Shown here one piece after another: positions 5,601-54,242 of a stretch of 64,000 bases of DNA (position 1 is its first letter; each line of letters begins with the position of its first letter). The position numbers and the translations under genes are program-made. This DNA comes from a virus: IMG/VR virus record IMGVR_UViG_3300027987_000382, positions 64,001 through 128,000 of that record, one strand, 5' to 3'. The notes under the pieces are model-generated. The model was not told the origin of the DNA. It did no database searches and was given only the letters and a program-made list of their open reading frames with translations.

Positions 5601-6129
5601 CACTCTGAAGCATGTGTCGAACACCGAAGTGATTCGGCGTTTGCTGATTAAGTATTTTGTCGACAAGGGATTCTTCGAGAGCTTCGACCGTCAACTCTAT
5701 CCTGCCGCTATGCAGGACCTCCCGTTCGTGGTTCCGGCTCTGGCCAGCAAAATTGAGGTTGTCCCCCACGCAGAAAACATCGATACGGCACTCGGCAAGG
5801 CCGTGATTGGATGGAACCTGTTCTGCCTTGGTAATCAGAGGATGTATCTCGGCGAGACACATCACAACAATCTGCAGGATTTGGCGAGGCAGATTAAGAG
5901 CGGCATGATTATGCCGGAAGGGACACAATCGTCAGCACGTCGCCAAACGACTCCGCGAAGAGTGGTTGCTTTCTTGACGCGGGTGCTTGGCGACCATCAG
6001 GCTGGCTACGTGGATCTTGCTCCGATCACTAGGCCGGTTTCCCAGCCGGGCGATGTCTACGGTGCCCGTCGCAATGCGATGAGTGGTATGCCGCAGCAGT
6101 TCTTCACCCGGTCTGGTTACGGCACCTAG
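5581..6129 (+). CDS. hypothetical protein
   Basis: 182-aa ORF; its stop overlaps the stop of the convergent gene (CTAG 6126-6129). Confidence 0.7.
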   Translation: MDSRTVDTLKHVSNTEVIRRLLIKYFVDKGFFESFDRQLYPAAMQDLPFVVPALASKIEVVPHAENIDTALGKAVIGWNLFCLGNQRMYLGETHHNNLQDLARQIKSGMIMPEGTQSSARRQTTPRRVVAFLTRVLGDHQAGYVDLAPITRPVSQPGDVYGARRNAMSGMPQQFFTRSGYGT

Positions 6130-7484
6130 TTCTTGGGCACCAGTCCGTGGGCGAGGCACACGGTCCTGATGTTCTCCATGTAGATGTTCACTGACCGGGT
6201 CGTAATCCCGAGAAACATCGCGATGTGATTCTTCTTCGGTCGGTCGTCACCAAATCGTTCTGAAAACTCGTCGTAGACATCGCCGATGCCGCATTGGATG
6301 TCGAAGATCTTTTGACAGTCACCTTCTGGCAGCGACTCTCGTACAGCGATCATCACGTCCGTGGCATCGATTGTTGCGATGTGATCGTCCTGGTCCATTT
6401 TCTGTGCTCCAACGGTCCTGAACGAGAGCTGGCTGATCGTGAAGCTGTCACTTTCATCATCGCTCCCGCTCTTGGTGTGGTTATCGAGAACCAGGACGTG
6501 TTCCGGCTTGGAGACGTACGCTTCTAGGTCTCCGGCATCCGCGTTTTCAACGACCTGAATCTCTGACGGATTGCAGAGGACTTCAATCCCAAGTCCTGTT
6601 GCTTTCTTCCGCAATACGGCAAGCTCGGCCGTGAGTTCAGGCGGTGTGAGGAGACCGACAACGTTGATGGTGTATCGTCCATTGGACGGGTTGTCAACGT
6701 GCGAGTAGTTGAAGTCACATTTGAGGCGTGACAGCTGACCGATGATCTCTTCCGTGATCACCTTGTCGGCACGTCCGACGATTTTCTGTGGCTCCTTGCG
6801 GTGCTCTTTTCGGACGTTCTCTGCAAGTTGCTGGCGGAAGTAGTTCCAGACGAATTCGCCGAAGAATTTGACGAGCTGGGTGTCGTCATTGATGATGTCG
6901 TTCGGGTTTTCGTACTTCTTCTCGCCTGGAATCCAGTCGATGGGCGATTCGCACTTTGGTGCTCGCTTCGTCTGGTCGAAGTATTTGTAGCTGTCCTGGA
7001 AGACGTCGAAGGTGACGTAGCTGCCGACTTCGAGGTCGGTGTCACCGGCGTCTGTCACGCGGACTTGCTTACAGTTGGGGCATTTGTCCGCTTGGCGGTT
7101 GATCTCGCGTGGGACGCCCTGTTGCGTGATCCAGGTGTCGGAGCCGCAAGCTCGGCAGTGGAAGGTGTACTTGCGGTGGTAGAATAGCTCGACGGTCCCC
7201 TTCCAGACCGCGATTTGGTACTCGATGTCGCCGCACTTCTTGTCGCTGGCGTAGTCGGCACCGATTGTGTTACCAAGCTCTTCGATGACACCTGCTCGGT
7301 GTCTGGCCATTCCAGGATGGGTGGCGACGTACTCCACGATGCTTTCGACGTGGAGCTTTTCATCTTCGGTCAGGTTCGCCATCGTTACATTGGCGAGTGA
7401 ACCCCTGAGATAGAGTTCGGGCATTTGGCGTACGAGGGCCATGAATTCCTCCGGTTGGGATAGTACGTCCTTGAAACGTTGCAC
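6126..7484 (-). CDS. sigma70-like transcription factor with Zn-ribbon insertion (putative)
   Basis: C-terminal region-4-like HTH (SLPEGDCQKIFDIQCGIG...KNHIAMFLGITTRSVNIYMENIR); region-2-like segments flank CRAC/CPNC pairs. Confidence 0.5.
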   Translation of the reverse strand: MQRFKDVLSQPEEFMALVRQMPELYLRGSLANVTMANLTEDEKLHVESIVEYVATHPGMARHRAGVIEELGNTIGADYASDKKCGDIEYQIAVWKGTVELFYHRKYTFHCRACGSDTWITQQGVPREINRQADKCPNCKQVRVTDAGDTDLEVGSYVTFDVFQDSYKYFDQTKRAPKCESPIDWIPGEKKYENPNDIINDDTQLVKFFGEFVWNYFRQQLAENVRKEHRKEPQKIVGRADKVITEEIIGQLSRLKCDFNYSHVDNPSNGRYTINVVGLLTPPELTAELAVLRKKATGLGIEVLCNPSEIQVVENADAGDLEAYVSKPEHVLVLDNHTKSGSDDESDSFTISQLSFRTVGAQKMDQDDHIATIDATDVMIAVRESLPEGDCQKIFDIQCGIGDVYDEFSERFGDDRPKKNHIAMFLGITTRSVNIYMENIRTVCLAHGLVPKN

Positions 7485-7570
7485 ATGTTGTAGTAATTAG
7501 TAGCACGTCCCGCGAATACATCCGTATTTGGGGGAGTACCTTCCGGTCGTCTTGTTACAAGGGGAACACG

Positions 7571-8350
7571 ATGAGTCAATATTGCGACAGCAAGGTTTTG
7601 GAACAGAACTGGTTCAACTGGCTGCTGTCTTCGTCCGTTCCGGAACTCGAGCCGTTCCGTAAGGCGGGAGTTTTGTGGACGAAAGTCGTGGGCACTGTTA
7701 GGCGGGATGACGGGACGGAAATCCTCCGTCACGGAGTGCCCTTGGCAGATCCATCGTACCCTACCAGAGCCCATTGCATTGCTTTGGGGCATCCGGTGTA
7801 CTTGAACAGTTACAATGGTGTTCCGCAGTCTGCTGGTACTGTCTTCATCGCCGGGGAGCCGACCCCCGTTACCTTGTTCGATCTCGTCAGCGAGCTGCAT
7901 CTCCTTTCGGACGCGTGGTTTCACAACCTCGGGAATCCACTGAGTCAACATGAGACCCTCCCGCACATCGAGGTCAATGGGTATATTCGGGAGGTGCCAG
8001 AAGAGGTATCTTGGCACGCGATCCTGGGCGACATCGACAAGATCTGCCAGGGGATCGCGATGAAGTTCAAGCAGCCGTCAGAAGAGGAGAGATTGGACTT
8101 GGCGAATGAAGCCCTACTCCAGGTCACCAACAAGCTTGTCAATCGCAAGCTTGTGTACACTCCGGGTAAGGCACCAGTCTTCAATCTTCTCACAACGACG
8201 ATCCACCGCTGTATGTATTCGATTATGAATCGGCGGACCAACAGAAGGCAGGGTCAAGCCAAGCTGCTAGAAGATGCCCAAGCAGGCATCCTGCCAGACT
8301 CACAACGGTCATTACGCACGCCGACGCGACGAACCATTAGATCACACTGA
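7571..8350 (+). CDS. T4 gp55-like (late) RNA polymerase sigma factor (putative)
   Basis: YCDSKVLE N-terminus and KICQGIA...DLANEALL...YTPGKAPVFNLLTTTIHRCMYSIM resemble the gp55/region-2 pattern; no region 4; GGGG RBS. Confidence 0.55.
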   Translation: MSQYCDSKVLEQNWFNWLLSSSVPELEPFRKAGVLWTKVVGTVRRDDGTEILRHGVPLADPSYPTRAHCIALGHPVYLNSYNGVPQSAGTVFIAGEPTPVTLFDLVSELHLLSDAWFHNLGNPLSQHETLPHIEVNGYIREVPEEVSWHAILGDIDKICQGIAMKFKQPSEEERLDLANEALLQVTNKLVNRKLVYTPGKAPVFNLLTTTIHRCMYSIMNRRTNRRQGQAKLLEDAQAGILPDSQRSLRTPTRRTIRSH

Positions 8351-8497
8351 AGGTTTCGTGTCAATACCGGATACAGAGCGTGCCATCTCCTTCAAATACA
8401 TCCGGAGTGTTTCTCTCGAACAACGTTGATCCCCTCTCGATGCTAGCACGTATTTGTACGTTAGGGAGCGAGATCACAAGTAAGCGAGATTCCTCCA

Positions 8498-8755
8498 ATG
8501 ACAGATCGAGCACCCACGGAGGGACAGCCACCAGCTGCGGTGAAAGAACTTCTGGCAGACCACCAGGAAGTCTTGGTCGTATTGCTTGACCCAGACACTA
8601 CCACTGAAGGCGAATCTACAATAGCATGTTTCATGAAGCTCGAAGAGAAAAGCCGATTGTCAGCTTACCTCCAAAAGCTTCTGCAGCAGTTATTGAAGAC
8701 AAGCAGTGCCAAATCAGGTGGTCACATCGCGACTCAAACCACAATTAGTCCGTAA
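8498..8755 (+). CDS. hypothetical protein
   Basis: 85-aa ORF downstream of a GTATT-containing intergenic region. Confidence 0.45.
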   Translation: MTDRAPTEGQPPAAVKELLADHQEVLVVLLDPDTTTEGESTIACFMKLEEKSRLSAYLQKLLQQLLKTSSAKSGGHIATQTTISP

Positions 8756-9689
8756 AAGGACTATCGTTCGAGTCCCCCCGACAGTTAAAGTTGTTGTCAA
8801 GAGCGTCGCCGGGGAGCCAAAAGTCGCAAGACCGGATCAGATCAAGCAATTGAAGCAGATCCGTATCCGCTCCAACAGTGCACAACAGCAAGCCTCCCCA
8901 CCGCCACAACAACGAGCAGTCCCACCACCGTCGAACGCCGTAGTTCAAGGCAGAAACAGACGAGGTATCAGGCGTGCGACTAAGGTCAAGTACATCACAC
9001 GTGGTGTCTCGCCAGAGTCAATCGCCAAAATAAACGCTCTCAGGAACGCCGGACGCGGGAAAATCCTGATCATAGTCGGAAACGGACCATCCATTAGCGA
9101 AGCACCTCTAGATAAGCTCCGCAATATCCGTAACATCGACACTCTTTCTATCAACAAGCCCGACGACCGGCTTTGGCCGACTTCTCACTGGGCATTCTTC
9201 GACGGTTCGCAAATGCGGAGACACGAAGCATTGTGGACCAGCTACGGTGGCTACATCTTTAATAGCACGGCCATCAAAAGGCAAAAAGAGAAGTCGATGC
9301 AATTCAAGAATCTTGGCGGGCACGGCTTCAGTCGCGACATGTCAAAGGGGCTTCACATCGGACGTTCCTCGGTTTACGCCTCTATGCAGATTGCTCTTTG
9401 GATGGCATACGAGCACATCTACATTTTCGGTTGCGACATGAACCCAGCAGGGCTGAACGGCAAACTACACTTCTACGGAGTGAATCCTGACGTCGATCCA
9501 CACAATCGTGCTGAACGATTCCAAAAGGAAGCTGAACACTACGATACGGCTGCCAAAGCACTTTCTCCAGAAGAGCGTGCGAAATTCACGTTCTGCACGG
9601 AGTACAACCCTTGGCAGTTCGTCGATTCGTTCAACAAGATGAGCCACAAGGATGTCAGTAAGATTCTGGAACACGCTGCGAAGCTGTAG
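8706..9689 (+). CDS. Maf/DUF115-like (CstII-related) glycosyltransferase with basic N-terminal extension
   Basis: IIVGNGPS, SSVYASMQIA, IYIFGCD and HFYG motifs; first ~110 aa are R/K/V/P/Q-rich. Confidence 0.7.
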   Translation: MPNQVVTSRLKPQLVRKRTIVRVPPTVKVVVKSVAGEPKVARPDQIKQLKQIRIRSNSAQQQASPPPQQRAVPPPSNAVVQGRNRRGIRRATKVKYITRGVSPESIAKINALRNAGRGKILIIVGNGPSISEAPLDKLRNIRNIDTLSINKPDDRLWPTSHWAFFDGSQMRRHEALWTSYGGYIFNSTAIKRQKEKSMQFKNLGGHGFSRDMSKGLHIGRSSVYASMQIALWMAYEHIYIFGCDMNPAGLNGKLHFYGVNPDVDPHNRAERFQKEAEHYDTAAKALSPEERAKFTFCTEYNPWQFVDSFNKMSHKDVSKILEHAAKL

Positions 9690-9699
9690 AACTACAGTC

Positions 9700-9727
9700 G
9701 CAACAATGCTCCGAGTTGTTGTATTGA
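9700..9727 (+). promoter_or_regulatory. bipartite promoter candidate GCAACAAT-N13-GTATTGA
   Basis: Both boxes and their spacing are identical to 39321-39348; intergenic, just upstream of ATG 9734. Confidence 0.6.
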
Positions 9728-9733
9728 AGTAGC

Positions 9734-10162
9734 ATGCGTGGTAGAATATATGTGGGCACTAGCCTTCGCAACGCGAAGAGAGCAAATGAGCTTCAACAGC
9801 GTTTCAGAGACGCTGGTTGCGAGATAACGTACGATTGGACTACGCACGGACAAGTATATACTGATGCGGAGCTAGAGGAGTTTGGAGTCGAAGAAGAACG
9901 CGGGGTTGAATCAGCCGACGTGTTCTTTATGGTGTTCCCGGCTCGTAACGGCTCGCATTGTGAGCTTGGTTTGGCACGAGGTTTTGGGGTAAAAATCGTC
10001 TTGTTGATCGAAGAAGAGCACGAGAAGAAGACGTTCTACTACTTACCGAAAATCGCGAACAGACCAGAGGTTTCGCGTTTCACCAACGAGGACGAAGCCG
10101 TTCAATTTACTCTTGATTTCCTGGATACCAAATATGAGCGGTGCAATTCTCAACCGGCTTGA
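9734..10162 (+). CDS. nucleoside 2'-deoxyribosyltransferase / nucleotide N-glycosidase family protein
   Basis: RIYVG, YDWT, ADVF, GSHCELGLA (putative nucleophile Glu). Confidence 0.75.
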   Translation: MRGRIYVGTSLRNAKRANELQQRFRDAGCEITYDWTTHGQVYTDAELEEFGVEEERGVESADVFFMVFPARNGSHCELGLARGFGVKIVLLIEEEHEKKTFYYLPKIANRPEVSRFTNEDEAVQFTLDFLDTKYERCNSQPA

Positions 10163-10844
10163 AATCGATGTCATGCAAGCAAACGAGCTTGTCGAAGCTT
10201 CCGAGCTTGCCTCAAAATACAAAATGCCAGCCCTCATAGTTCACCCGGATCTTGCCTCAGAGGCTCAGATCTATCGCGGTCGGACGAGAGGGAGGTACGC
10301 ACTGATCACGCCAATCGATTGGCCGAAAGGTGAGACGTTCGGGCAGAACAAACTTCGCGGCCTTTCAACTGACGCCCTCGACGCCGATGGTTTCGAGATT
10401 CTGTTGACTGGCGGCAAATCGGTGACAGATACCAGGAACGAGGCCAAATACCTCACAGAATTCCTGAAGCAGCATTTGTCAGAGACAATCGAGGTCAGGT
10501 TCGTCCTCGGCTCTAATATGCGTGATCACCAGAACGTCTTGCAGATGTGTGAAGCACTGCGTGGCGTCAGAACCCCAGCGTATGTCAGAAATGACACACA
10601 GCTCAAGTTGCAGGTTAGCAAGGCTAACCCAGACACTCACAATGCCTTGATGGAAGAAATCCGAAAGATAATCAAGGTTCCGATCAAGCTGAGTGGCAAC
10701 ATCACAGGCGTCAGGGCCATTACTTCATGCAATGATGCATCACGTTTTGCTGTCAATCTTCTGCAGGCCAAAAATGTGGTGAAAGAACTCCAACAGCAGC
10801 CTGAAGAATTACGGCAGCTGTTGGAGAGTCAAGATGCAACATGA
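10134..10844 (+). CDS. DeoC (deoxyribose-phosphate aldolase)-like TIM-barrel protein, divergent
   Basis: ALIVHP, ITPIDWPKG (cf. TVxxFPxG), DADGFE, PIKLSGNI (cf. KASGGIR); start moved to ATG 10134. Confidence 0.55.
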   Translation: MSGAILNRLEIDVMQANELVEASELASKYKMPALIVHPDLASEAQIYRGRTRGRYALITPIDWPKGETFGQNKLRGLSTDALDADGFEILLTGGKSVTDTRNEAKYLTEFLKQHLSETIEVRFVLGSNMRDHQNVLQMCEALRGVRTPAYVRNDTQLKLQVSKANPDTHNALMEEIRKIIKVPIKLSGNITGVRAITSCNDASRFAVNLLQAKNVVKELQQQPEELRQLLESQDAT

Positions 10845-11217
10845 GCATGTGATCTGTCCACATTGCGGTGGCAACATTGGATGGGAATTCGTCCGGGCGG
10901 ACATCGAAACACGATTGTCCGAAGGAATACCGGATGGTCCGTACCATTGTTATCATTGCGACAGGTCATTCACTCTTGTTTCAGACGGGAATTTGACGGT
11001 CGAAAATACTGGTAGAGTTAATCTGAAAGAAAGTCTCCCAGTATTAGAAAAAGGAACGACGGTACTACTAAACAATGAAGAACACCCTTGGCACAACGAA
11101 ATCGCTCTGATCTGTGATCGGAAGCACAAGTTCTACCGTCTGGAAATTCGTGGGAAGAGGCTTTGGGTACCGGAAGAATGGGTAAAAACCGATGAATCAC
11201 TTGCTGACTCAGATTAG
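10834..11217 (+). CDS. Zn-ribbon hypothetical protein
   Basis: CPHC...CYHC pairs plus a short beta-rich C-terminus. Confidence 0.65.
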   Translation: MQHEHVICPHCGGNIGWEFVRADIETRLSEGIPDGPYHCYHCDRSFTLVSDGNLTVENTGRVNLKESLPVLEKGTTVLLNNEEHPWHNEIALICDRKHKFYRLEIRGKRLWVPEEWVKTDESLADSD

Positions 11218-11578
11218 TGAGTTAGGCGAGGATGCTGATCTGCTCACAAGACATGATGATTGGCTTGAGACGCAACGGAATGCCCTACAAGGTGATCTTG
11301 AACAAAAGGCGACTGAACTAAGAGCCGTCCTTCTTGCTCAACGTATCAAAAGACTTCTGCAGCAAAAGAATCTGGTCGCTGTTCAGCACCTGATTCGCAG
11401 CAGCGAAGGCAAGGTCATCGACATCGTCATACGGATCATGAACCTGCCTGACGCACTTCAACATCTCCTCGAGAAGCCAGTCGACACCCTCGACGAAGTC
11501 AATGCCGCAGCTCAAGTCCACGGATGGGACCGAGACGGCTATGACATCCCCGGCTCGCAAGCTCTCCGCTCCGCATAA
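11192..11578 (+). CDS. hypothetical helical protein
   Basis: 128-aa ORF overlapping the upstream gene. Confidence 0.6.
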   Translation: MNHLLTQISELGEDADLLTRHDDWLETQRNALQGDLEQKATELRAVLLAQRIKRLLQQKNLVAVQHLIRSSEGKVIDIVIRIMNLPDALQHLLEKPVDTLDEVNAAAQVHGWDRDGYDIPGSQALRSA

Positions 11579-11656
11579 TTGCGTGTCATCTCCAGCTTCT
11601 GTTCCAGTATTGAACTGGCAGTCGTAGGAGAACCATCACGCCAAAGGAGAGCAGAG

Positions 11657-12826
11657 ATGCAAAGTCGTCGATTCAACGTCGTAACAGACGGCCAATGGGG
11701 TAGCTGTGGCAAGGGCCTCATCACCACCGCCCTCGCCGCTCGATACCGCCCCGAGATCATCTCGACGACAAACATGGCGAACGCCGGGCACACCGCCGTG
11801 CACGAGAACGGCGAAGACAAATTCGTCGCCAAAGCACTCCCATCAGCTGCGATTCTCCGCCAATGGATAGCCGGATACGACCCACACATCGTCGTCGGCT
11901 GCAGTGCGGCATTCACGATCGAGCAAATGCACGACGAAATCCAACTGACCGGATCAAACTACCAGCTCACGATCCACGAAAGAGCTGGTGTCATTACCGA
12001 AGCACACAAGGCCGCAGAAGGTAGCCTCGAGACCGGTACAAAGCACGTTGCCAGCACCATGCAAGGCTGTGGAGCATTCCTTGCCGACAAGATCATGCGA
12101 CGCAAAGATCTCAAGCTCGCTCGAGACTACCCAGAACTCAACAGCCACATGCCAGAGCATCTCGGCAAAAAGATCGACAACATCAACCCGGCAATCAGGG
12201 ACGCGGTCGCCGGAATGAGCCTACCACGTGCTCTCGCCACGCTGATGCACCTGTTCGACATCACAATTCTGCACGAAGGAGCCCAAGGATTCTCGCTGGA
12301 CATCAATCACGGCTCGCACTACCCACAGTGCACAAGTCGTAGCACCACGGCAATGCAGAACTTGGCTGACATGGGATTGAACCACACCCATGTCGGCGAC
12401 ATCTATCTTGTCATCAGACCGTTTCCGATCAGAGTGGGGAACGTCATCGAAGAAGGCAAGACTGTCGGCTACTCTGGTGATTGCTACGACGATCACGAAG
12501 AGACCACCTGGACCGAAGTTGCACAACAATGCAACGCACCGCCAGAAGTGATGCAGGGCGAACTGACCACGGTGACAAAGCGTCTACGACGCGTCTTCAC
12601 CTTCTCTGAAAAACAATTGCGAGAAGCTGTTGCCATCAATGGTGCAACAAAGATCGCCCTCAACTTCGCCAACTACATCGACTGGGCCTGCTACGGCACG
12701 AGTGAATATCGCGAGCTGCCGACGAAGGTCGTAGATTTCATCACTCGCATTGAGGATATCGCCGGTATTCCAGTCACCGTGGTTGGAACCGGTCCACACA
12801 ACGATCACGTCTGCTTCCTGAGTTAA
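11657..12826 (+). CDS. purZ: PurZ-type adenylosuccinate-synthetase homologue (N6-succino-2-amino-dAMP synthase candidate)
   Basis: GQWGSCGKG (Ser where PurA has catalytic Asp), NAGHT, EGAQG, FPIRVG, ELTTVTKRLRR, LNFANY; AAGGAG RBS before ATG 11657. Confidence 0.85.
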   Translation: MQSRRFNVVTDGQWGSCGKGLITTALAARYRPEIISTTNMANAGHTAVHENGEDKFVAKALPSAAILRQWIAGYDPHIVVGCSAAFTIEQMHDEIQLTGSNYQLTIHERAGVITEAHKAAEGSLETGTKHVASTMQGCGAFLADKIMRRKDLKLARDYPELNSHMPEHLGKKIDNINPAIRDAVAGMSLPRALATLMHLFDITILHEGAQGFSLDINHGSHYPQCTSRSTTAMQNLADMGLNHTHVGDIYLVIRPFPIRVGNVIEEGKTVGYSGDCYDDHEETTWTEVAQQCNAPPEVMQGELTTVTKRLRRVFTFSEKQLREAVAINGATKIALNFANYIDWACYGTSEYRELPTKVVDFITRIEDIAGIPVTVVGTGPHNDHVCFLS

Positions 12827-12911
12827 CAATGGCTACTTCCATTGTATATAGTGCGTGTTGGGCTGGCAAAATCCTCACGCATATCGAAACTCCGGGAGTA
12901 TTCGAGGTAGA

Positions 12912-13742
12912 ATGGGTGGAGAAACAGTACAATCTAGAAGTGGGCGAACGAGAGATACGCTCCGAGTCGCCGCTTATCTTGAAGAGGTTGGAGAAGACCC
13001 AGCAACCTCTTGTGGAAACCTATTAGAATTCAGGATTCCGTACGTTGCGTTGAAGCATGTCTGGACCGGGAACGTAGATTCTCTTCCCGACAACGCTTAC
13101 CAGCGGCTCCGCAAAACCATCTCAGAGCATGAGATGACGGTGGTTCTGATCGCTAGCGATCTCGGCAGCGATCCAGCCGATTCCCTCAGTAAAATCGGTG
13201 AATCACGGATCGATCACGTCTTCAATCTCGCCTCCTATTTCAAATCCCCGTTTGTCAGAATTGGTATTGGCACCGAATGTAGCCAGAAATGTGCCACTGC
13301 TATTGACGAATGGATGGCGAAGATCTCCACGAAGGCTATCAAGGCCAACGTGACGCCACTGCTCGAAATCACACACAACACTTATATCAACACGCCAAGT
13401 GGCGTCGCCAATCTACTGCTAAAACACAAGCGGTGGAAAATTCTCTACGATCCTGTCCAATTCATTCTACGACAGAATCAAGATCCGTTTGTGAAATACT
13501 GGACTCTGCTGAAGAACAGCGTTTCGGCTATCGATGTTCGCGATCTGAAGATAGGTAAAGGATTCAAGCCGTCTGGGTTTGGTAATTCCAGGATCGACTT
13601 AACGATTAAGGACGCTATCGGCAGCGGCTACCAGGGCTGGTACATAATGGAGCCGTCCCTCGGAAGGCGTCATGGCGACGCTCTGACGAAAAAGGACACG
13701 TTTAAAATGGCTCTCGACGCCTTTGATGCTATCATAGAATAG
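12912..13742 (+). CDS. xylose-isomerase-like TIM-barrel protein (sugar-phosphate isomerase/epimerase, AP-endonuclease-2 family)
   Basis: AAYLEEVG...VALKHVWTGNV N-terminus; LLE, ILYDP, IDVRD, G.G.ID and YIMEP motifs; GAGG RBS before ATG 12912. Confidence 0.7.
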   Translation: MGGETVQSRSGRTRDTLRVAAYLEEVGEDPATSCGNLLEFRIPYVALKHVWTGNVDSLPDNAYQRLRKTISEHEMTVVLIASDLGSDPADSLSKIGESRIDHVFNLASYFKSPFVRIGIGTECSQKCATAIDEWMAKISTKAIKANVTPLLEITHNTYINTPSGVANLLLKHKRWKILYDPVQFILRQNQDPFVKYWTLLKNSVSAIDVRDLKIGKGFKPSGFGNSRIDLTIKDAIGSGYQGWYIMEPSLGRRHGDALTKKDTFKMALDAFDAIIE

Positions 13743-13783
13743 TAATCAAAGTTATGGCGGGACATAGTACCCTGGAGTGACCC

Positions 13784-13999
13784 ATGGCTGTCAATGTCAA
13801 CGAGGCAATCGTAAAGATCAAAGAGGCCGGTTCATCAAACGTCCGAACCGTGCCGATGCCAGGCCAGAATGTCAATTCTGGCCAATACCAGATCGAAATC
13901 AATCAGGCTGGAACGTGGGTTCCAGTCGCAACGGGGATCAGCAAGAAAATCGCAGAGGACATTATCAGCCAGGCGACCAACAGGGTCATATTGGGATGA
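13784..13999 (+). CDS. hypothetical protein
   Basis: 71 aa, GGAG RBS. Confidence 0.7.
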   Translation: MAVNVNEAIVKIKEAGSSNVRTVPMPGQNVNSGQYQIEINQAGTWVPVATGISKKIAEDIISQATNRVILG

Positions 14000-14009
14000 G
14001 GTACCCAAA

Positions 14010-14459
14010 ATGGCTCGACGAAACAAAGAACGCATTTCGTCGGTCTTGGAGCTTTCCCGCTACAAGGTCGGCGAAACAGTCTGGTGGGTGATCCTTCGGA
14101 ACACAGAACCAGTTCCGGACATCTCTGAAGAAGACCGTTGGATGGAAAGCCACCATCCAAAGGCTCTCTACGAACGTGGTCCATACCAACGCTTGTGGAC
14201 CAGCAAAGCCATGCTTCCGAAGCTGCAGCATATGGACTTCGGGATGATGGTGTCGCTCCTCACCGCAGAATTCAAAGTTGAACCGTTCACCATCGTAGAA
14301 GTCGTTCGCAGCAGAGACACAGCCGAATTCTTCTACTCGAACGCCGATGACGAATGGATGCCAGAATCAAGCCTCTTCTGCACCGACATCGCGGCCCGTC
14401 GTGAACGAAATCGCATTATGAGGCTCATTAAAAAGTGGGCAACCAGCCAGTCCACTTAG
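14010..14459 (+). CDS. hypothetical protein
   Basis: GAGG RBS before ATG 14010; in frame with ORF 13869..14459. Confidence 0.65.
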   Translation: MARRNKERISSVLELSRYKVGETVWWVILRNTEPVPDISEEDRWMESHHPKALYERGPYQRLWTSKAMLPKLQHMDFGMMVSLLTAEFKVEPFTIVEVVRSRDTAEFFYSNADDEWMPESSLFCTDIAARRERNRIMRLIKKWATSQST

Positions 14460-14464
14460 GCGGC

Positions 14465-15154
14465 ATGATGAAGATATACGCCGATGGATCAGATCCAGAC
14501 GAAATGGTGGCATTGACCGAAAACCGCACAATCTCCGGTTTCACCACCAACCCTACCCTCATGCGGAAAGCAGGAATCACCGATTACGAACAATTCGCCA
14601 AACAAGTCCTACAGCGAATCCCGCACCACCCAATCTCATTCGAAGTTTTCGCCGACGACCATTCAGAAATGGAACGGCAAGCACATAAGCTAGCCTCCTT
14701 CGGCGATAACGTGTTCGTTAAAATCCCAATCACCAACACAAAAGGCGAGACGACCACCCACTTGATCAAACGGCTCCTGGACTCAGGAATCAAAGTCAAC
14801 GTCACAGCAGTTCTAAGCAGCCGACAAATTAACGAAGTGACGCACTTCCTAGCGAGCGAAACCAGAGCCATTCTCTCTGTCTTCGCAGGACGAATCGCCG
14901 ATTCAGGTGTCGACCCAAAGCCCCTCATCAAAGAAGCTCTTGGACTAGCAGCTCCCAACGTCGAAGTTCTTTGGGCGAGCTGCAGAGAGATCTACAACGT
15001 GTACGAAGCCGATTCTATCGGTTGTCACATCATCACCGTCCCCAACAATCTGATTCCAAAATTGGCGTTACGTGATAAAGATCTGGATGAATTCTCTCTC
15101 GAGACTGTCAAGATGTTCTACGACGACGCCGAGAGCAGCGGATTCGTTTTATGA
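14465..15154 (+). CDS. tal: transaldolase (small TalC/FSA family)
   Basis: GFTTNPTL, VFVKIP (Schiff-base Lys), VNVTAV, SVFAGRI, LWASCR. Confidence 0.93.
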   Translation: MMKIYADGSDPDEMVALTENRTISGFTTNPTLMRKAGITDYEQFAKQVLQRIPHHPISFEVFADDHSEMERQAHKLASFGDNVFVKIPITNTKGETTTHLIKRLLDSGIKVNVTAVLSSRQINEVTHFLASETRAILSVFAGRIADSGVDPKPLIKEALGLAAPNVEVLWASCREIYNVYEADSIGCHIITVPNNLIPKLALRDKDLDEFSLETVKMFYDDAESSGFVL

Positions 15155-16116
15155 TCCTGACCAGAACGCCATTTCGCATCACCCTTGGTGGCGGCGGCAC
15201 AGACATACCCTCATATTACCAGCACAACGGTGGGCTGGTATTGTCGATGGCGATCGACAAATACGTCTACATCACCCTCAAGCCAGATGCCTTTGAACAT
15301 CTCTGCAAAGTCCGATACTCGGAAATCGAGATCGTCGACAACCTCTCTGATCTGAAAAACACAAGAGCCAGAGAAGCACTCATAGCTCATGATCTCCTAG
15401 CAGTCGAGATCAATACTTGTGCCGATCTCAACCACAGATCTGGCCTCGGCTCATCCGGCTCTTTCCTGGTCGGCCTATTGAAAGCGATCAGAGAGTACAA
15501 GCAACTTGATAGCTCTCCACACACAATAGCCGACGAAGCTTGCACAATTGAAATCGAAAGACTCAATGAACCGGTCGGCAAACAGGATCAATATATTGCT
15601 GCCTTTGGCGGCGTCAAGATTTTGAAGATCTCCAAAAGTGGTTCCGTCGAAGTAAGTCCGCTCGAGATTGATCATGCTGCTCTAATCCAGAACATGCACA
15701 TCTACTCGTTGGGCGTCTACCGCGATGCGTCCAGTGTTCTGGCAACTCAACAGAAGATGGGCGGCACCACCAAACAAACGCTCGACACGATCATGGAGTT
15801 TGGAGAGAGGACGATCGAACTTCTGTCGTCTTCAGAATTCGACGAATATGGCCGTCTACTTGATGCTTATTGGACCGAAAAGAAAAAGCTTTCCAACAAG
15901 GTGTCGATCCCTATCGTAGACAAGATCTACGAAGAGGTAAAGGGATTCGGTGTCCTTGGTGGCAAAATAATTGGTGCTGGCGGAGGAGGGTTCTTGCTGT
16001 TATATATAAATCGAAGGCACGCTGAACTTGAACAATTCATGGCGAGCCGGGGTCTGCGGAGACTGCGGTACGAAGCAGACTTCACAGGCAGCAAGATCCT
16101 AGGAAATTTCTTATGA
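15151..16116 (+). CDS. hddA: GHMP kinase, D-glycero-alpha-D-manno-heptose-7-phosphate kinase-like
   Basis: PFRITLGGGGTD, SGLGSSG, GKQDQY, KIIGAGGGGF. Confidence 0.85.
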   Translation: MILTRTPFRITLGGGGTDIPSYYQHNGGLVLSMAIDKYVYITLKPDAFEHLCKVRYSEIEIVDNLSDLKNTRAREALIAHDLLAVEINTCADLNHRSGLGSSGSFLVGLLKAIREYKQLDSSPHTIADEACTIEIERLNEPVGKQDQYIAAFGGVKILKISKSGSVEVSPLEIDHAALIQNMHIYSLGVYRDASSVLATQQKMGGTTKQTLDTIMEFGERTIELLSSSEFDEYGRLLDAYWTEKKKLSNKVSIPIVDKIYEEVKGFGVLGGKIIGAGGGGFLLLYINRRHAELEQFMASRGLRRLRYEADFTGSKILGNFL

Positions 16117-16997
16117 AGATTCTCGTGACAGGCGGCCGTGGTTTTATCGGCACCCACTTGGTACGAAGATTGACGCAGCAACACTCCGTGCGAGTCATCG
16201 ACAATCTCTCATCAGCCAGCCTACCAAAGGTGCGAGACGTCGAATATCATTGCTACGACATCCGAAATTTCGATGATATCGAACCCTTGTTCGCCGGTGT
16301 CGACGGCGTCTTTCACCTCGCGGCAGAGGCAAGAATCCAAGCAGCAATCGACGATCCAAGAAACACCGCCGAAATTAATATCCTCGGCACCGTCAACGTT
16401 CTGGAAGCGTGCAGGATCAACAATGTCCCAAGAATTATCAATTCAAGCACCTCGGCGATTTACGGTCTAACCGATCAATTTCCAACTTCTGAAGACGTGA
16501 AACCTGATTGCCTCAACCCGTACGCCTCTAGCAAGCTCGCCGCAGAGGAGATGGTGCGATGTTACTCAAGTCTTTACGGCATCAAGTCTCTCAACCTCAG
16601 ATACTTCAACGTCTTTGGGGAAGAATGTCCCGTCACTGGCCCATACTCGCTCGTCGTCGGTCTGTTCTTACAACAACGTAGCAATGGCGAAAGCTTAACC
16701 ATTGTCGGAACCGGCGAGAGCAGGCGTGATTTCGTCCATGTTGGCGATGTTGTCGACGCCAACATCAGAGCAATGAGCTGCAAACTAGAAAAGAGTGGGG
16801 AGCAGGTCAATATTGGCTCTGGGAGTAATATATCGGTTCTGGACGTAGCAAAAGCGATATCGGACAATATGGTCTTCGTCGAACCACGGCCAGGGGAAGC
16901 CAAAGAGACCTTAGCGGACGTATCACGAGCAAAAGAATGGCTAGGCTGGGAGCCGAAAGTCAACCTTTTGGACTGGCTTCAAAGAAGCAGTCATTGA
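16113..16997 (+). CDS. NAD-dependent nucleotide-sugar epimerase/dehydratase
   Basis: TGGRGFIG, HLAA, YASSK, LRYFNVFG, RDFVHV. Confidence 0.92.
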   Translation: MKILVTGGRGFIGTHLVRRLTQQHSVRVIDNLSSASLPKVRDVEYHCYDIRNFDDIEPLFAGVDGVFHLAAEARIQAAIDDPRNTAEINILGTVNVLEACRINNVPRIINSSTSAIYGLTDQFPTSEDVKPDCLNPYASSKLAAEEMVRCYSSLYGIKSLNLRYFNVFGEECPVTGPYSLVVGLFLQQRSNGESLTIVGTGESRRDFVHVGDVVDANIRAMSCKLEKSGEQVNIGSGSNISVLDVAKAISDNMVFVEPRPGEAKETLADVSRAKEWLGWEPKVNLLDWLQRSSH

Positions 16998-17586
16998 TGT
17001 TGGCCATTCCAATAAAGCGATAGCCCTTCTCAGCCATATACTCGATCATCCTCTTCTTGCGGTAATCGAGTGATGAAGTCTCAACTCTGATGAATCTTGG
17101 CGGATTCTTAGCGAAGTCGAGCCCATTCATGGCTTCGTATTCATAGCCTTCCACGTCCAGGGACAAAAGGTCGATACGATCAATACCGTGCTGGTCGATA
17201 ATCGACTGCAGAGTTCTAGCCGGTACGTGAACGACAGTCGGCTTCACCGCTTTCTCCTCAGCGGCCGTCCTCTGATGGACATCGTAATAATCGAGCGGAA
17301 TTGTGATCTGCCCGACAAGACTGTCATCGATCCCTATTTCTGCGAAATTCCCCGGAATTGTTGCTTCGCTATAATCGAAAGCCACTAATGCACAGTGTTC
17401 GAAGATATTCTTGGATGAGCGATTGGCTTGACATTCTGAGAGCCGTTGTTTGTTTGGTTCAATCAGCAATCCATGCCAACCCATCATTTCTAAACGAATA
17501 GTGTTAGATTGGGCGAGGCCGTTATTCGCACCGGCCTCGATGTAGAAACCATTGTTGAAGTCCAGAAATTCATCCATGTAATTCAC
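16960..17586 (-). CDS. FkbM-family methyltransferase
   Basis: FYIEAGANNG, GWHGLLIEP, IDLLSLDVEGYE. Confidence 0.9.
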   Translation of the reverse strand: MNYMDEFLDFNNGFYIEAGANNGLAQSNTIRLEMMGWHGLLIEPNKQRLSECQANRSSKNIFEHCALVAFDYSEATIPGNFAEIGIDDSLVGQITIPLDYYDVHQRTAAEEKAVKPTVVHVPARTLQSIIDQHGIDRIDLLSLDVEGYEYEAMNGLDFAKNPPRFIRVETSSLDYRKKRMIEYMAEKGYRFIGMANINDCFFEASPKG

Positions 17587-18136
17587 ACAACCAGTTAACT
17601 ACGAGATGCCACACGATTCCTTGCCACTCCTCCGCGTGAGGCGTAATTCTTTTTTTCTCAACAATAGGAATCAGAACGCATGTGTCGCCATGGAATCTAG
17701 CATAACCACCATCTCGCGAAACGATCGATAGGATTTTGGCTCGTTGCGATTTCGCATAGTCGATCGCCTCAACGATGTTGTGCGATGTTGTCAACGAGCC
17801 ACCGCCGACAGATAGAACGAACAGAGCGTCGCGTTCATTCATCGACGACGTCTTGAGCCATTGCGAAAAGCTCGTGCTCCAACCATCGTCGTTGATCCTC
17901 GCCGTTAATTCAGCCACATTATCTGTGACGGCGTAGCATTCGATACCGGCGATTTTGCGGAAATCATTAACGGCATGAGAACAGTTAGCAGCACTGCCAC
18001 CGACACCAACAAAGAAAATTCTGCCTTTGTTGTTGCGAATTTCAGCGATTGATGTGACGAGATCACTGATCTGAGAGCGGTCTATCTTTTTGGCGATCTC
18101 GATCACCTCAGATAGATATTGGTCAACGTAAGTCAT
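17570..18136 (-). CDS. gmhA: SIS-domain phosphoheptose isomerase (GmhA-like)
   Basis: GVGGSAANCSH, TARIND, LSVGG, EEWQ. Confidence 0.8.
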   Translation of the reverse strand: MTYVDQYLSEVIEIAKKIDRSQISDLVTSIAEIRNNKGRIFFVGVGGSAANCSHAVNDFRKIAGIECYAVTDNVAELTARINDDGWSTSFSQWLKTSSMNERDALFVLSVGGGSLTTSHNIVEAIDYAKSQRAKILSIVSRDGGYARFHGDTCVLIPIVEKKRITPHAEEWQGIVWHLVVNWLCELHG

Positions 18137-18756
18137 TTTTTCAACATCACATGGAAACTGTCGCCATACCGAACTTTATTCTTGAACGGCAGGTCGGTTA
18201 TTACGGAAAAGTGCTCTGGGAGTAGGACATTGAACCAGACATCCTTCGGATATACCGACTGATGCAGAACATGGCCTTCGACCACGTCTGGGATCGGGGC
18301 GATACTGGCACAAAAGATCGCGTCGTCCGCCATGTGCTTTTTGATATTGTCGAAGAACGGTCGCAAATCGTGCGAGGCGATGTGTTCCACGACCTCCCAG
18401 GAAGTGACCAGATCGAAAAGAATCTGGTTTCCTTCGTCATCAACGATCTGGTATGGCTTGGTGGCGTCACACGTGAAAAGGCAAACGTTGTGGAACTGCG
18501 GCCAATTGGCACGAGCATGTTTCACGCTGTAGTCGCTTCCTTCGATTCCAACGGCCATGTGGCCTCTATTGTTGAAGTCGATGGTCAGTTGCCCGCCAGA
18601 ACACCCAACATCCAACGTCTTGATCTTCCTGCCGCCGAACCATTCCTCGATCTCACGGATGAAACCGGGGTCCGTGGTGTTGTCGCGTTTCGTTCCCCAA
18701 GGGAAGATGTGGTCCGGTGAATCATAAGCTACCGGATGATCTGTAATGACTTTCAT
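18133..18756 (-). CDS. class I SAM-dependent methyltransferase
   Basis: LDVGCSGG, FDLVTSWEVVEH. Confidence 0.88.
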   Translation of the reverse strand: MKVITDHPVAYDSPDHIFPWGTKRDNTTDPGFIREIEEWFGGRKIKTLDVGCSGGQLTIDFNNRGHMAVGIEGSDYSVKHARANWPQFHNVCLFTCDATKPYQIVDDEGNQILFDLVTSWEVVEHIASHDLRPFFDNIKKHMADDAIFCASIAPIPDVVEGHVLHQSVYPKDVWFNVLLPEHFSVITDLPFKNKVRYGDSFHVMLKK

Positions 18757-19424
18757 TGGATCAGGAACCCTACTTGAGAATAATGTTCGTGAATTTGATA
18801 TGAAAGAGGCTTCGCCTTTAATCCGGTTTCAATCAAGAACTCGGCGAAAGCTTTCACCTCATGTTCTCGATCTCTGTTATGAGGATAACCGCACCAATCA
18901 TCAAAGCACATTACCGTGCCAGGTACGATCTTGTCGAAAAAGGCCCCAAGGATCGTCTTACAAGAGCTGTAAAGATCCGAGTCGATGTGCATAAATGCCA
19001 CAAGCTCAGAATGTTCTTTCACGAACTGAGGAAGCGTATCCTCAAACCAGCCCTTGACGAACCTGACATTCTTCGGCCAGTCTTCCCACACTTTGCCGTG
19101 GATCACGTTCTCACCTCGGAAGATTCGTTCTGGAATCTTGCCACCAAGCGAGAACGTTCCCTTCGGATTTGTCGGAGTCCAATCCTCTGGTAGCCCTTCG
19201 AAACTGTCAAATCCGTAAATCGTCTTGTCGGGATTGCAGTTGGCGATCGTCCCCAGTGATTTACCCTGGAAAACCCCGAATTCCATCCACAAGCCGTTCA
19301 ACTTGACGTGCTTGAAGCAGTGGCTGAAATGAGTCCTGTTGCAATCGCCGTGGATATGCGGGAATTTCGGTTCCGATTTCTCCAAATCGGCCAGTAATTC
19401 GTCTATTTTCTCATTGATGTCCAT
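18753..19424 (-). CDS. TylF/MycF-family O-methyltransferase
   Basis: EFGVFQG, GFDSFEGLPE, KGWFEDTLP, HIDSDLYSS, FDD; start moved to ATG 19424. Confidence 0.88.
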   Translation of the reverse strand: MDINEKIDELLADLEKSEPKFPHIHGDCNRTHFSHCFKHVKLNGLWMEFGVFQGKSLGTIANCNPDKTIYGFDSFEGLPEDWTPTNPKGTFSLGGKIPERIFRGENVIHGKVWEDWPKNVRFVKGWFEDTLPQFVKEHSELVAFMHIDSDLYSSCKTILGAFFDKIVPGTVMCFDDWCGYPHNRDREHEVKAFAEFLIETGLKAKPLSYQIHEHYSQVGFLIQ

Positions 19425-20115
19425 CAAGTATCCTCTGTCGTAATTCTGATGACGAGTAATTGTGCGATCGATCGTGGAAGTAGAGAACCCCGCAGTATTC
19501 CTTGCCTGTGATCTCACCCTGGTTATCAGAGCCAAGGAATCGAATATCCGGCCGGATATCCTTGAGCAGAGTTGTCAAGTCCGCTTCTGTGTCGTACTGA
19601 ACTATCTCGTCAACGTACTTACAACCTTCAAGTTGAATGCGACGCTCTTCAAGCGATTGAATTGGTTGATTTTTACTCGGCCGATCGATAGTTGGATCTG
19701 TCTGCAAGGCCGCTATCACGTGGTCACATCGTTCTTTGGCTTCTTTCAGAATCAAACAGTGACCGGCGTGAAGAAGGTCGAAGCAACTCGCCAAGAAGCC
19801 AACTAATCTGATATTTTGTTCCATCCTCCATGCAGCCGTGCTGATCGCTTTGTCATCAACCAGACGATCGAACGAATGTTTCCCGGTCAAGAAGTAGTGA
19901 TACTTGACGCCCCATTCGTTCAACTGGAAAATGCTCAGTGGTCCGTAATCTATCCCAGACGTTCCGCCACGCGATGTGTGGATCGTGATTTCGTGTCCCT
20001 CATCGTACAGCTGATTCACACGCTGGATCACTTTGAGAAGCGGAACCGCCTCTGAATAGTCCCTAGACGCTGGAGTTAAGCAGAGCGTCTCATCTAGGTC
20101 GAAATAGTATCTCAT
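19411..20115 (-). CDS. fusion of HAD-family phosphatase and TagD/HldC-type cytidylyl/nucleotidyltransferase
   Basis: N-terminal FDLDETLC...HTSRG...GK...VDDKA; C-terminal FDLLHAGH, ER, VDEI, SSSELR. Confidence 0.85.
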   Translation of the reverse strand: MRYYFDLDETLCLTPASRDYSEAVPLLKVIQRVNQLYDEGHEITIHTSRGGTSGIDYGPLSIFQLNEWGVKYHYFLTGKHSFDRLVDDKAISTAAWRMEQNIRLVGFLASCFDLLHAGHCLILKEAKERCDHVIAALQTDPTIDRPSKNQPIQSLEERRIQLEGCKYVDEIVQYDTEADLTTLLKDIRPDIRFLGSDNQGEITGKEYCGVLYFHDRSHNYSSSELRQRILDGHQ

Positions 20116-21179
20116 AGAAGTCCACGAAATCTGCTCGCGACCAAGCTGTATTCGTACACGGATAGGTACCTCTCATAGGTCATTTTGGCCAGTTCAGCAC
20201 GATATCCAGTATCGAAGAATTTGCTCATCTCGGCAGCATATTCACCTACCGAGTCCGTAACAGCACCGATCCCTCGCACCTGCTCCAAATGGCCAAGGTT
20301 AGTCCCATCGCCGTAATGGCTAACGATCGGTTTGCCATGGGCCATTGCTTCAATGAGGCTAGCAGAACAGACCTCACCGTCGCGACGACAATGTGCATAG
20401 ACGTCGATCGATTCAAGGAAGGCGTGAACCGTCTCTACACCGGAGACTGGCAGAAAGATGACGTTCTTGATTCCCTGACTTTGGACGAACTGACGATGTT
20501 GTTGATCGCCACCAAGGATGACATAATAAGTGTTATTGCGTACTATTTGAGAAAAGGCGTTCAAGGAGACGAGCGATGGAACCCCAGGTGCTTGGTGTAA
20601 TCCAAACACAAGAGCGTCGGCCGGAACACCAATTGATTCTCTGAAGCCCGTACCATCGACTCGTGGGATTGGAATTAGAGACGGGATTACCTCGAGCTTT
20701 GACGTATCACCACCATTCGCTTTCCATTGATTCGCTTGCCAATTGCACAAGAGCACCGACTTGCGAATGTTGGGGGCATTGTAGACATGCCACCCATGGA
20801 TCGTGTGAATAATCGGGACTCGCCCCAATTTGGTGTATGGAAATTCTGGCCTTCCGTCACCGGCTGTTACTAACCGATCGTACTTCGACTCATCGAACAG
20901 ATCAAAGAAATTGGTGTCAACCCAACCAGCTCCATCTGCCGCACTTCTGCGTCTACTTAACTGCACCAATTTGGTGTTGATCCCGGCGGATTCGACAAGC
21001 TCTTTCCTGGCAGGACATGTATCTGGATGTTGCCAGTTCGTTCCCTCGATTGGTGTCGCATTGGTGTAAAAGTAATCGACTTCGTGACCGGCTTCTTTGT
21101 ACAATAATGCAAGACTTTGGAGGTACTTTTCAGTGCCACCGGCCGCCAAACCACCGTACTTGCAAAAAGCGATTTTCAT
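20112..21179 (-). CDS. GT4-family glycosyltransferase
   Basis: GGTEK, HTIHG, GEVCSASLIEAMAHGKP (Ex7E). Confidence 0.88.
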   Translation of the reverse strand: MKIAFCKYGGLAAGGTEKYLQSLALLYKEAGHEVDYFYTNATPIEGTNWQHPDTCPARKELVESAGINTKLVQLSRRRSAADGAGWVDTNFFDLFDESKYDRLVTAGDGRPEFPYTKLGRVPIIHTIHGWHVYNAPNIRKSVLLCNWQANQWKANGGDTSKLEVIPSLIPIPRVDGTGFRESIGVPADALVFGLHQAPGVPSLVSLNAFSQIVRNNTYYVILGGDQQHRQFVQSQGIKNVIFLPVSGVETVHAFLESIDVYAHCRRDGEVCSASLIEAMAHGKPIVSHYGDGTNLGHLEQVRGIGAVTDSVGEYAAEMSKFFDTGYRAELAKMTYERYLSVYEYSLVASRFRGLL

Positions 21180-21199
21180 ACGCTGGAAAACCTATCTTT

Positions 21200-24267: not shown

Positions 24268-24315
24268 CTGAATCCTCACGGTACATACGACAACCTTTAA
24301 TAATTACGGTGACCA

Positions 24316-54217: not shown

Positions 54218-54242
54218 GGACATTGTGATGAAGGAGCAACAA

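Follow-up and report, generated by a model that had tools for sequence, protein, structure and literature searches.

The window analysed here, a stretch of 64,000 nucleotides, corresponds to bases 64001–128000 of a 146,839-bp viral contig of the IMG/VR database, and our subject is a run of genes on its + strand that includes purZ, the gene encoding the synthase of the 2-aminoadenine (Z) nucleotide pathway. The completeness of the contig is 41% according to CheckV, and its relatives measure 355–408 kb and carry terminal repeats; the contig is therefore a fragment of an uncultured jumbo phage. An initial annotation had described in this region one co-oriented run of genes: an NDT-like gene (9734–10162), a DeoC-like gene (10134–10844; DERA-like hereafter), two ORFans (orfA, 10834–11217, and orfB, 11192–11578), purZ (11657–12826) and a gene for a TIM-barrel enzyme (12912–13742). 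All of these genes are present and all lie on the + strand. The list was incomplete, since it lacked the gene at 8706–9689 just upstream, a gene encoding 71 amino acids (aa), orfC and a dUTPase-family gene at 54225–54875. Start codons are backed by homologues for the DERA-like gene (10134), purZ (ATG at 11657), the TIM-barrel gene (12912) and orfC (14010). Among 50,697 GenBank phage records, no match was found for the DNA of the module by megablast, nor for the NDT-like and DERA-like proteins by tblastn; purZ alone has homologues among GenBank phage proteins, and these are distant (<36% identity). Comparisons were made with 80 IMG/VR purZ loci, scanned with hidden Markov models of the module proteins and by BLAST with DatZ, MazZ and DpoZ of an Acinetobacter phage and the DmtZ-DutZ fusion, and with the complete genomes G001 (356 kb), G006 (395 kb), G007 (371 kb), G008 (393 kb) and G014 (100 kb).

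The purZ product matches the Pfam family Adenylsucc_synt (PF00709, E 6.9e-37) and PHROG 1211 (E 1.6e-58). We aligned it with E. coli PurA, Acinetobacter phage PurZ, Gordonia phage PurZ0 and its homologues from jumbo phages. All the jumbo homologues have a serine at the position of the catalytic Asp13 of E. coli PurA (GSCGKG versus GDEGKG) and carry the ATP motif NFANY at the site of the guanine-specific TKLD of PurA, LNFANYI aligning with LNFANYC of the Acinetobacter phage. According to Poubanne et al. (PMC12884076), the aspartate is present in 99% of PurA and the serine in 100% of phage PurZ proteins, and for Yang et al. the residues that discriminate include S14, F295 and Y298, of which the last two denote the ATP-type enzyme. 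The NCBIfam PurZ model NF038379 is the top model for the window protein, with 215 bits, which is under its cut-off of 300. In a quick maximum-likelihood tree of 66 sequences, weakly rooted on E. coli PurA as the single PurA outgroup, PurZ0 branches first and PurZ in the wide sense is supported by a Shimodaira-Hasegawa-like approximate likelihood ratio test (SH-aLRT) value of 96. The classical PurZ clade (SH-aLRT 99) is sister to a jumbo clade that includes the window protein (98), and a third, long-branched group is formed by the protein of locus L033 with those of L155 and L158. The identification of purZ, already made in the initial annotation, is thus well supported by the serine at the Asp13 position, the NFANY motif, the best NCBIfam model and the tree, and we read the predicted protein as belonging to a new lineage of PurZ within the ATP-type part of the family.

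This enzyme would convert deoxyguanosine monophosphate (dGMP) and aspartate into succino-amino-deoxyadenylate. Since no gene for the subsequent lyase was found (no match to Lyase_1, the family of PurB, in the contig of the window and four relatives, G000–G004, including the complete G001), the PurB of the host presumably finishes the synthesis of the Z deoxynucleoside monophosphate (dZMP). The DERA-fold barrel was considered as a possible analogue of PurB, with nothing in support. Our literature search retrieved no paper linking PurZ with jumbo phages. In locus L034, purZ is split or extended into an open reading frame (ORF) of 1212 aa (L034:8461-12355) and the homologue of the gene at 8706–9689 into an ORF of 682 aa (L034:4504-6552), which suggests inteins or other insertions.

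The NDT-superfamily protein of 142 aa (9734–10162) is a predicted (deoxy)nucleoside-5'-monophosphate N-glycosidase/transferase. It shows a weak match to Pfam PF05014, below the Pfam cut-off (E 0.0026), and a match to PHROG 12607. A profile built from 12 orthologues matches the cytidine monophosphate (CMP) N-glycosidases 4jen, BlsM and MilB (E 5e-6 to 6e-5) and next the true NDTs. Among the orthologues no variation is seen at Y6, H75 and E77 and almost none at D62, Y6, D62 and E77 corresponding to the catalytic triad of the superfamily, with the catalytic glutamate in a GSHxELG motif; a tyrosine at the position of Y6 is held to exclude ribonucleotides. The intact triad and the profile matches agree with the N-glycosidase-like assignment of the initial annotation, which had further proposed that the enzyme cleaves deoxyadenosine monophosphate (dAMP) or exchanges its base. 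By analogy this is plausible, but such an activity is no longer undescribed: DmtZ, published in February 2026, is an NDT enzyme that removes dAMP or exchanges its base in PurZ0 actinophages (PMC12884076), and a 2025 preprint associates NDT domains with Z-modified contigs (bioRxiv 10.1101/2025.10.22.683976).

The relationship of the window protein to DmtZ appears to be a distant one. An hhalign comparison of the NDT-like profile with the DmtZ domain of phage Litotes aligned the catalytic glutamate and was marginal (E 7e-4, probability 26%). For Asp12, the dAMP-specificity residue of DmtZ in phage Ghobes, there is no clear counterpart: the position six residues after the tyrosine is variable in the NDT-like family, and the next residue, N13, is invariant. 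In addition, the slot between the gene homologous to 8706–9689 and the DERA-like gene is always occupied by an NDT-fold gene, yet of two different subfamilies. As judged from these comparisons, the window protein is neither a member of the monophyletic DmtZ group nor a DmtZ orthologue; because the DmtZ match is marginal, GenBank phage homologues are absent and two NDT subfamilies alternate in the slot, it looks like an independent recruitment of an NDT enzyme. Two proteins of Gordonia phage Archimedes, gp51 and gp52, were also considered and rejected as not NDT-like.

The DERA-like gene (10134–10844) overlaps the stop codon of the NDT gene by 29 nucleotides, an overlap that suggests translational coupling of the two. 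Its 236-aa product belongs to a family with 306 metagenomic members. An AlphaFold2 model based on 13 orthologues has a predicted local distance difference test score (pLDDT) of 85.6, and the top 50 listed Foldseek matches are essentially all DERA (one is titled merely 'an aldolase'), with E-values down to 1.6e-11 and template modelling (TM) scores of 0.72–0.75. At the sequence level the resemblance is slight: identity to DERA is 13–15%, none of 13 members has a Pfam match, to PF01791 or any other family, and no PDB profile match was obtained. From a motif alignment combined with the strands of the model, we infer the following catalytic register relative to E. coli DERA, in 11 sequences that are 23–59% identical to the window protein. 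An invariant arginine, R148, lies on strand beta6 (147–149) at the position of the Schiff-base lysine K167, and R118, conserved in the same set, lies at the position of K137. No lysine is conserved on beta6 or close to it, and K154 is lost in distant members. Equivalents are kept of D102 (E84), of K201 (K181 on beta7) and of the FPHG signature, of the type FPxG (WPKG). An hhalign comparison of the DERA-like profile with E. coli DeoC aligned strands beta2–beta3 alone, non-significantly, and also recovered the WPKG/FPHG pairing. Because an invariant arginine replaces the Schiff-base lysine, canonical deoxyribose-5-phosphate cleavage by a class I aldolase mechanism is unlikely for this protein, and its many conserved basic residues suggest a role in binding an anionic sugar phosphate or a nucleotide. 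The DeoC-like label of the initial annotation therefore holds for the predicted fold and not for the active site, and the recycling of sugar phosphate that had been attributed to the protein becomes doubtful.

The xylose-isomerase-like TIM-barrel protein encoded after purZ (12912–13742) matches Pfam AP_endonuc_2 with 34.5 bits (cut-off 31.1) and the PDB profiles of AsbF and Art22 (~4e-4); a literature search on "Art22" returned nothing relevant. The sole invariant residues are D180, D211 and K213 together with glycines, and E152 is nearly invariant. Of the metal-ligand set Glu/Asp/His/Glu, E152, D180 and D211 are retained, the histidine position varies and the last glutamate is lost in 4 of 12 sequences. 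The 80-locus scan showed that the gene is missing from several lineages bearing the module. The TIM barrel, which the initial annotation had counted as a partner in the module, is thus confined to one subclade and has a ligand set that appears degenerate. These data bear on the complete scheme initially proposed, with cleavage of dAMP by the NDT enzyme and further processing by the DERA-fold and TIM-barrel proteins. For this scheme to hold, the DERA-fold protein would have to work as an aldolase by means of another lysine (K181 on beta7 or K69). In its favour, the strand that carries the Schiff-base lysine varies among class I aldolases with related folds, the fold is DERA-like throughout with K181, E84 and the FPxG-like motif retained, and the overlap with the NDT gene would fit coupled expression. 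Against this stand the conservation of R148 and R118 over such divergent sequences, the absence of a conserved lysine on beta6, the loss of K154 in distant members, the lack of any DeoC Pfam signal and a TIM barrel that is missing from many module-bearing lineages and has no conserved histidine ligand. We consider this scheme improbable.

The gene at 8706–9689, upstream of the NDT gene, encodes a protein with a basic low-complexity N-terminal stretch of ~95 aa followed by a domain with a GNGPS motif; a G-x-D-M motif is also present. It matches Pfam MptE-like (PF01973) below the cut-off (E 8.8e-6, 26 bits versus 34.6) and, weakly, WaaZ, and its nearest ESM Atlas clusters are viral MptE-like proteins. 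The AlphaFold2 model (pLDDT 91.2) resembles best the folds of CstII, Cst-I, Maf and mammalian sialyltransferases, including ST6GALNAC2, with probabilities of 0.99–1.0 and TM scores of just 0.44–0.59. The gene is found wherever the DERA-like gene occurs, and no gene for CMP-sugar synthesis is conserved beside it. The MptE-like/sialyltransferase superfamily also includes a pyrophosphokinase, so that more than one type of reaction is conceivable. In distant lineages, a small, extremely basic Gly/Lys-rich protein is encoded between the sialyltransferase-like and NDT-fold genes (L155:4850-5344 and L137:8371-8610), which echoes the basic N-terminal tail of the window protein.

A sialyltransferase-like protein raises the possibility that the product of the module is not plain Z but either a further-modified purine nucleotide or glycosylated DNA or nucleotide, with this protein transferring a group built by the DERA-fold and TIM-barrel proteins. 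The long basic tail might bind nucleic acid, the DERA-fold barrel has re-tooled active-site residues, the PurZ lineage is distinct and falls under the NCBIfam cut-off, and a large island of sugar-nucleotide and glycosyltransferase genes adjoins the module in this genome. The island (14435–24279) contains heptose/sugar-nucleotide and glycosylation genes encoding a transaldolase, a GHMP kinase, an NAD-epimerase, an FkbM methyltransferase, a SIS isomerase, two further methyltransferases, a cytidylyltransferase-like protein, glycosyltransferases (GT) of the GT4, GT10 fucosyltransferase-like and GT25-like types and a GT2-sulfotransferase fusion. It was considered as the true context of purZ and rejected: none of the related loci has it, which marks it as a strain-specific insertion outside the module. 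Likewise, genes for the synthesis of a donor are not conserved alongside the core genes of the module, and PurZ keeps the residues that define the use of dGMP and ATP. A modified product of this kind appears very improbable.

The order of the genes is kept in more than 20 IMG/VR jumbo-phage contigs, with PurZ identities of 49–79%. Within the subclade of the window this order is sialyltransferase-like, NDT, DERA-like, orfA, orfB, purZ, TIM barrel, 71-aa gene and orfC. Two divergently transcribed ORFs without Pfam match (window 6126–8350) are kept just upstream in nearly all relatives and mark a backbone slot. Comparison of all loci delimits a conserved core formed by the sialyltransferase-like, NDT-fold and DERA-fold genes, to which orfA, encoding a Zn-ribbon-like protein, can be added; the TIM barrel, orfB, the 71-aa gene and orfC are additions specific to the subclade. 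The gene set of the initial annotation differs from this core and lacks its most conserved partner, the sialyltransferase/MptE-like gene. The NDT-fold gene is constantly accompanied by those for the DERA-fold and sialyltransferase/MptE-like proteins.

Every contig found with the DERA-like gene or the core also has purZ, whereas the converse is false. Conservation of the neighbourhood of purZ, the check suggested with the initial annotation, is strong, and the link is not obligatory. In the complete genomes G006 and G007, purZ stands alone, and ~180 kb separate it from the core, which occupies the SMC/sigma backbone slot that it also has in the window. There it consists of the sialyltransferase-like gene, an NDT-fold gene for 200 aa that belongs to another subfamily, the DERA-like gene and the Zn-ribbon orfA, and is followed by genes for an exonuclease, ThyX and Dcd. 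In G006 this following block (L137:10307-12979), made up of genes for a DnaQ-like exonuclease, ThyX and a dCTP-deaminase-like protein, is one of nucleotide metabolism. The complete genomes G008 and G014 carry a jumbo-type purZ and neither a DERA-like nor a sialyltransferase-like gene. In L155, L156 and L158, the core includes the 200-aa NDT variant and is followed directly by a very divergent PurZ with GSSGKG and NFANY motifs, and L033 has yet another divergent PurZ in this slot. Altogether, the slot after the core harbours three divergent PurZ lineages, all with the serine and an NFxN motif. Those of L033 (L033:8475-9659) and L155 (L155:6635-7936) are 31–34% identical to the window protein; their position in the slot, with the serine at the Asp13 position and the NFxN motif retained, looks like xenologous replacement.

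These distributions can be read in another way, with the core as an independent backbone unit (for nucleotide salvage, pyrimidine metabolism or a process linked to CMP-sugars) that lies beside purZ merely through clustering and has no role in the exclusion of adenine. Its remote position in G006 and G007 next to exonuclease, ThyX and Dcd genes, and the presence of purZ without the core in G008 and G014, would favour such a unit, and the closest solved relatives of its proteins, CMP N-glycosidases and CMP-sugar sialyltransferases, hint at a link with cytidylate. An accidental association fits less well with the presence of purZ in every genome found with the DERA-like gene, with the immediate succession of purZ to the core, seen in three or more divergent PurZ lineages, and with the distribution of DatZ-type genes, which are lacking in the core-bearing genomes and present in the core-less G008. 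We regard an independent backbone unit as somewhat unlikely.

The initial annotation had reported no DatZ- or MazZ-like gene next to purZ, and this absence extends to a wider search. No match to HD, HD_3, YfbR-like, MazG or DUF550 was detected in the 147-kb contig, nor to HD_3, YfbR-like, MazG or DUF550 in G000–G004, including the complete 356-kb G001; for DUF550 the blank is weak, the model having detected nothing in any control genome. Searches by tblastn with DatZ, MazZ and DpoZ of the Acinetobacter phage likewise retrieved no homologue in the contig and the loci searched alongside it. The one HD-domain protein of G001 was rejected as DatZ, being a generic HD hydrolase beside a DnaE fragment and unlike DatZ. 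The classical purZ loci of small phages, whose PurZ proteins are 31–37% identical to that of the window, served as a positive control: nearly all have MazZ and DatZ, DpoZ is present where the contig extends to it, and none has the module. Over the 80 loci, the jumbo-phage purZ loci carry the module, and DatZ and MazZ occur in none of them; L077, one locus without the module, has a PolA. G008 carries a YfbR/HD_3 (DatZ-type) protein (G008:C1:93584-94198; L159:585-1199) with an HD...TGD motif like that of DatZ, so that a complementary distribution of the core and a DatZ-like protein is possible.

A further candidate helper is encoded 44 kb from the NDT gene, to which it is neither fused nor adjacent. 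The product of the gene at 54225–54875 (+ strand), the only dUTPase-family gene, matches NCBIfam NF001862 (108.8 bits, cut-off 103) as well as Pfam dUTPase and shares 36% identity with the Dut domain in the DmtZ-DutZ fusion protein of phage Litotes. Since DutZ supplies dAMP and dGMP in PurZ0 phages (PMC12884076), this candidate DutZ-like deoxynucleoside triphosphate (dNTP) pyrophosphatase could, by analogy, do the same. Its N-terminal extension of ~88 aa has Cys-rich motifs, and homologues of this type occur in G002 and G004, alongside or in place of a standard dUTPase.

The remaining features of the locus are small. The product of orfA (10834–11217) is Cys-rich and gives a weak match to Pfam Zn_ribbon_19; its gene is retained beside the DERA-like gene even in G006 and G007. 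Both orfA and orfB are conserved in relatives, orfB (128 aa, 11192–11578) in the subclade of the window alone and with no family match in the Pfam, PHROG and NCBIfam-type libraries. Downstream of the TIM barrel, the 71-aa gene (13784–13999) is recovered by tblastn at the syntenic place in 12 relatives with 51–83% identity; a resemblance by eye to a small ORF of G006 was not supported by BLAST. For orfC (14010–14459, ~149 aa), conserved after the TIM barrel in the subclade, neither PDB profiles nor the ESM Atlas gave any lead. As for the conserved promoter box at which the run had been said to start, a promoter-like GTATT box (9721–9725) does lie ~9–15 nucleotides before the ATG of the NDT gene and recurs in the equivalent position in four close relatives (L002, L003, L004 and L034), more remote ones being without it there. 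A longer motif, TTGTATTGAAG, shows no clear enrichment in the window (23 matches versus 15 expected). The coding strand shows a strongly positive AT skew (0.14–0.25) over long stretches of the window (8001–16000 and 40001–64000).

Taken together, these data lead us to propose, at about even confidence, that the module is a jumbo-phage version of the Z nucleotide pathway in which the NDT enzyme removes dAMP and its partners act on the sugar-phosphate side. DatZ, MazZ and DpoZ would be replaced by a different set of helpers. The dUTPase-family enzyme may feed dAMP and dGMP from the triphosphates. The NDT-fold enzyme, acting as a DmtZ-like deoxynucleoside-monophosphate N-glycosidase/transferase, would split dAMP into adenine and deoxyribose-5-phosphate and could possibly hand the sugar phosphate to a free Z base, and binding or conversion of the sugar phosphate, with no Schiff base on beta6, is the probable role of the DERA-fold protein. 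We infer all the substrates of this pathway from sequence.

Several observations weigh against this proposal. The presence of Z in the DNA cannot be read from sequence. The nearest solved relatives of the NDT protein are glycosidases of CMP, not dAMP; its similarity to DmtZ is marginal, and the specificity residue Asp12 of DmtZ has no clear counterpart in it. The DERA-fold protein is missing the Schiff-base lysine needed for sugar recycling. The position of the core ~180 kb from purZ in G006 and G007, beside exonuclease, ThyX and Dcd genes, indicates that it may serve general nucleotide metabolism, and G014 has purZ without the core, HD_3 or MazG. Finally, the contigs bearing the module are all related, so that the counts of co-occurrence are not independent. 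On balance, the interpretation offered in the initial annotation is partly supported.

A more specific proposal joins the sialyltransferase/MptE-like protein, the NDT-fold protein and the lysine-less DERA-fold protein into a single new unit of three enzymes, which in jumbo phages would replace DatZ and MazZ. The NDT enzyme would strip adenine from dAMP and the other two would carry out an undescribed transformation of deoxyribose-5-phosphate, which would be activated for re-attachment to the Z base or disposed of without a Schiff base. So definite a division of labour seems to us unlikely.

Relative to known systems, we regard the jumbo-phage locus as a variant of the known Z pathway with two unexplained partner proteins. 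The closest parallel is the DmtZ/DutZ system of PurZ0 actinophages, which shares with the window a PurZ-family synthetase, an NDT enzyme with a Tyr/Asp(Asn)/Glu triad, the lack of DatZ and MazZ and a dUTPase-family gene in the genome. It differs in that the window PurZ falls on the ATP-type (NFANY) side and is not a PurZ0, in that the window NDT protein is marginally similar and without homologue among GenBank phages, and in that the Dut gene is 44 kb away; moreover, the genomes are those of jumbo phages rather than 40-kb actinophages, and the sialyltransferase-like and DERA-fold partners are extra. The classical PurZ-DatZ-MazZ(DUF550)-DpoZ cluster of cyanophage S-2L, vibriophage phiVC8 and Acinetobacter phages has a PurZ of the sister clade, with the same serine for Asp13 and F/Y ATP motif, whereas the window, its contig and the complete relative G001 are without DatZ, MazZ and DpoZ.

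At the level of single proteins, MilB, BlsM and Rcl (DNPH1) are the best profile matches of the NDT-like protein and share with it the catalytic-glutamate motif PxxxG(S/T)HxE(L/I)G, the N-terminal tyrosine being as in Rcl, although the matches are weak (E 5e-6 at best) and the window protein has its own invariant YDWTxHG motif. DeoC/DERA has the predicted fold in common with the DERA-like protein (TM ~0.75), which keeps the equivalents of D102, K201 and FPxG, but differs by an identity of 13–15%, the lack of a profile match and arginines for the Schiff-base Lys167 and for Lys137. Similarly, GT42 sialyltransferases (CstII), Maf and MptE-like proteins (PF01973) share a fold and the GNGPS and G-x-D-M motifs with the upstream protein, which is set apart by low TM scores, a Pfam match below the cut-off, the basic N-terminal tail and the lack of a conserved CMP-sugar synthesis gene.

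Known phages with Z-DNA are small siphoviruses, podoviruses and actinophages, with DatZ/MazZ/DpoZ and DutZ/DmtZ as helper sets. If Z is truly used by the group described here, the modification extends to jumbo phages, and the NDT fold has been recruited to the exclusion of adenine a second, independent time; in that case a chemistry would still have to be assigned to two conserved proteins, a DERA barrel with an arginine at the Schiff-base site and a basic-tailed sialyltransferase-like protein. The proteins of the module are small and should express easily, which makes the question directly testable. Next to the known systems, the window represents a widespread group of uncultured jumbo phages of 150–400 kb with its own predicted PurZ lineage and a putative third set of helpers.

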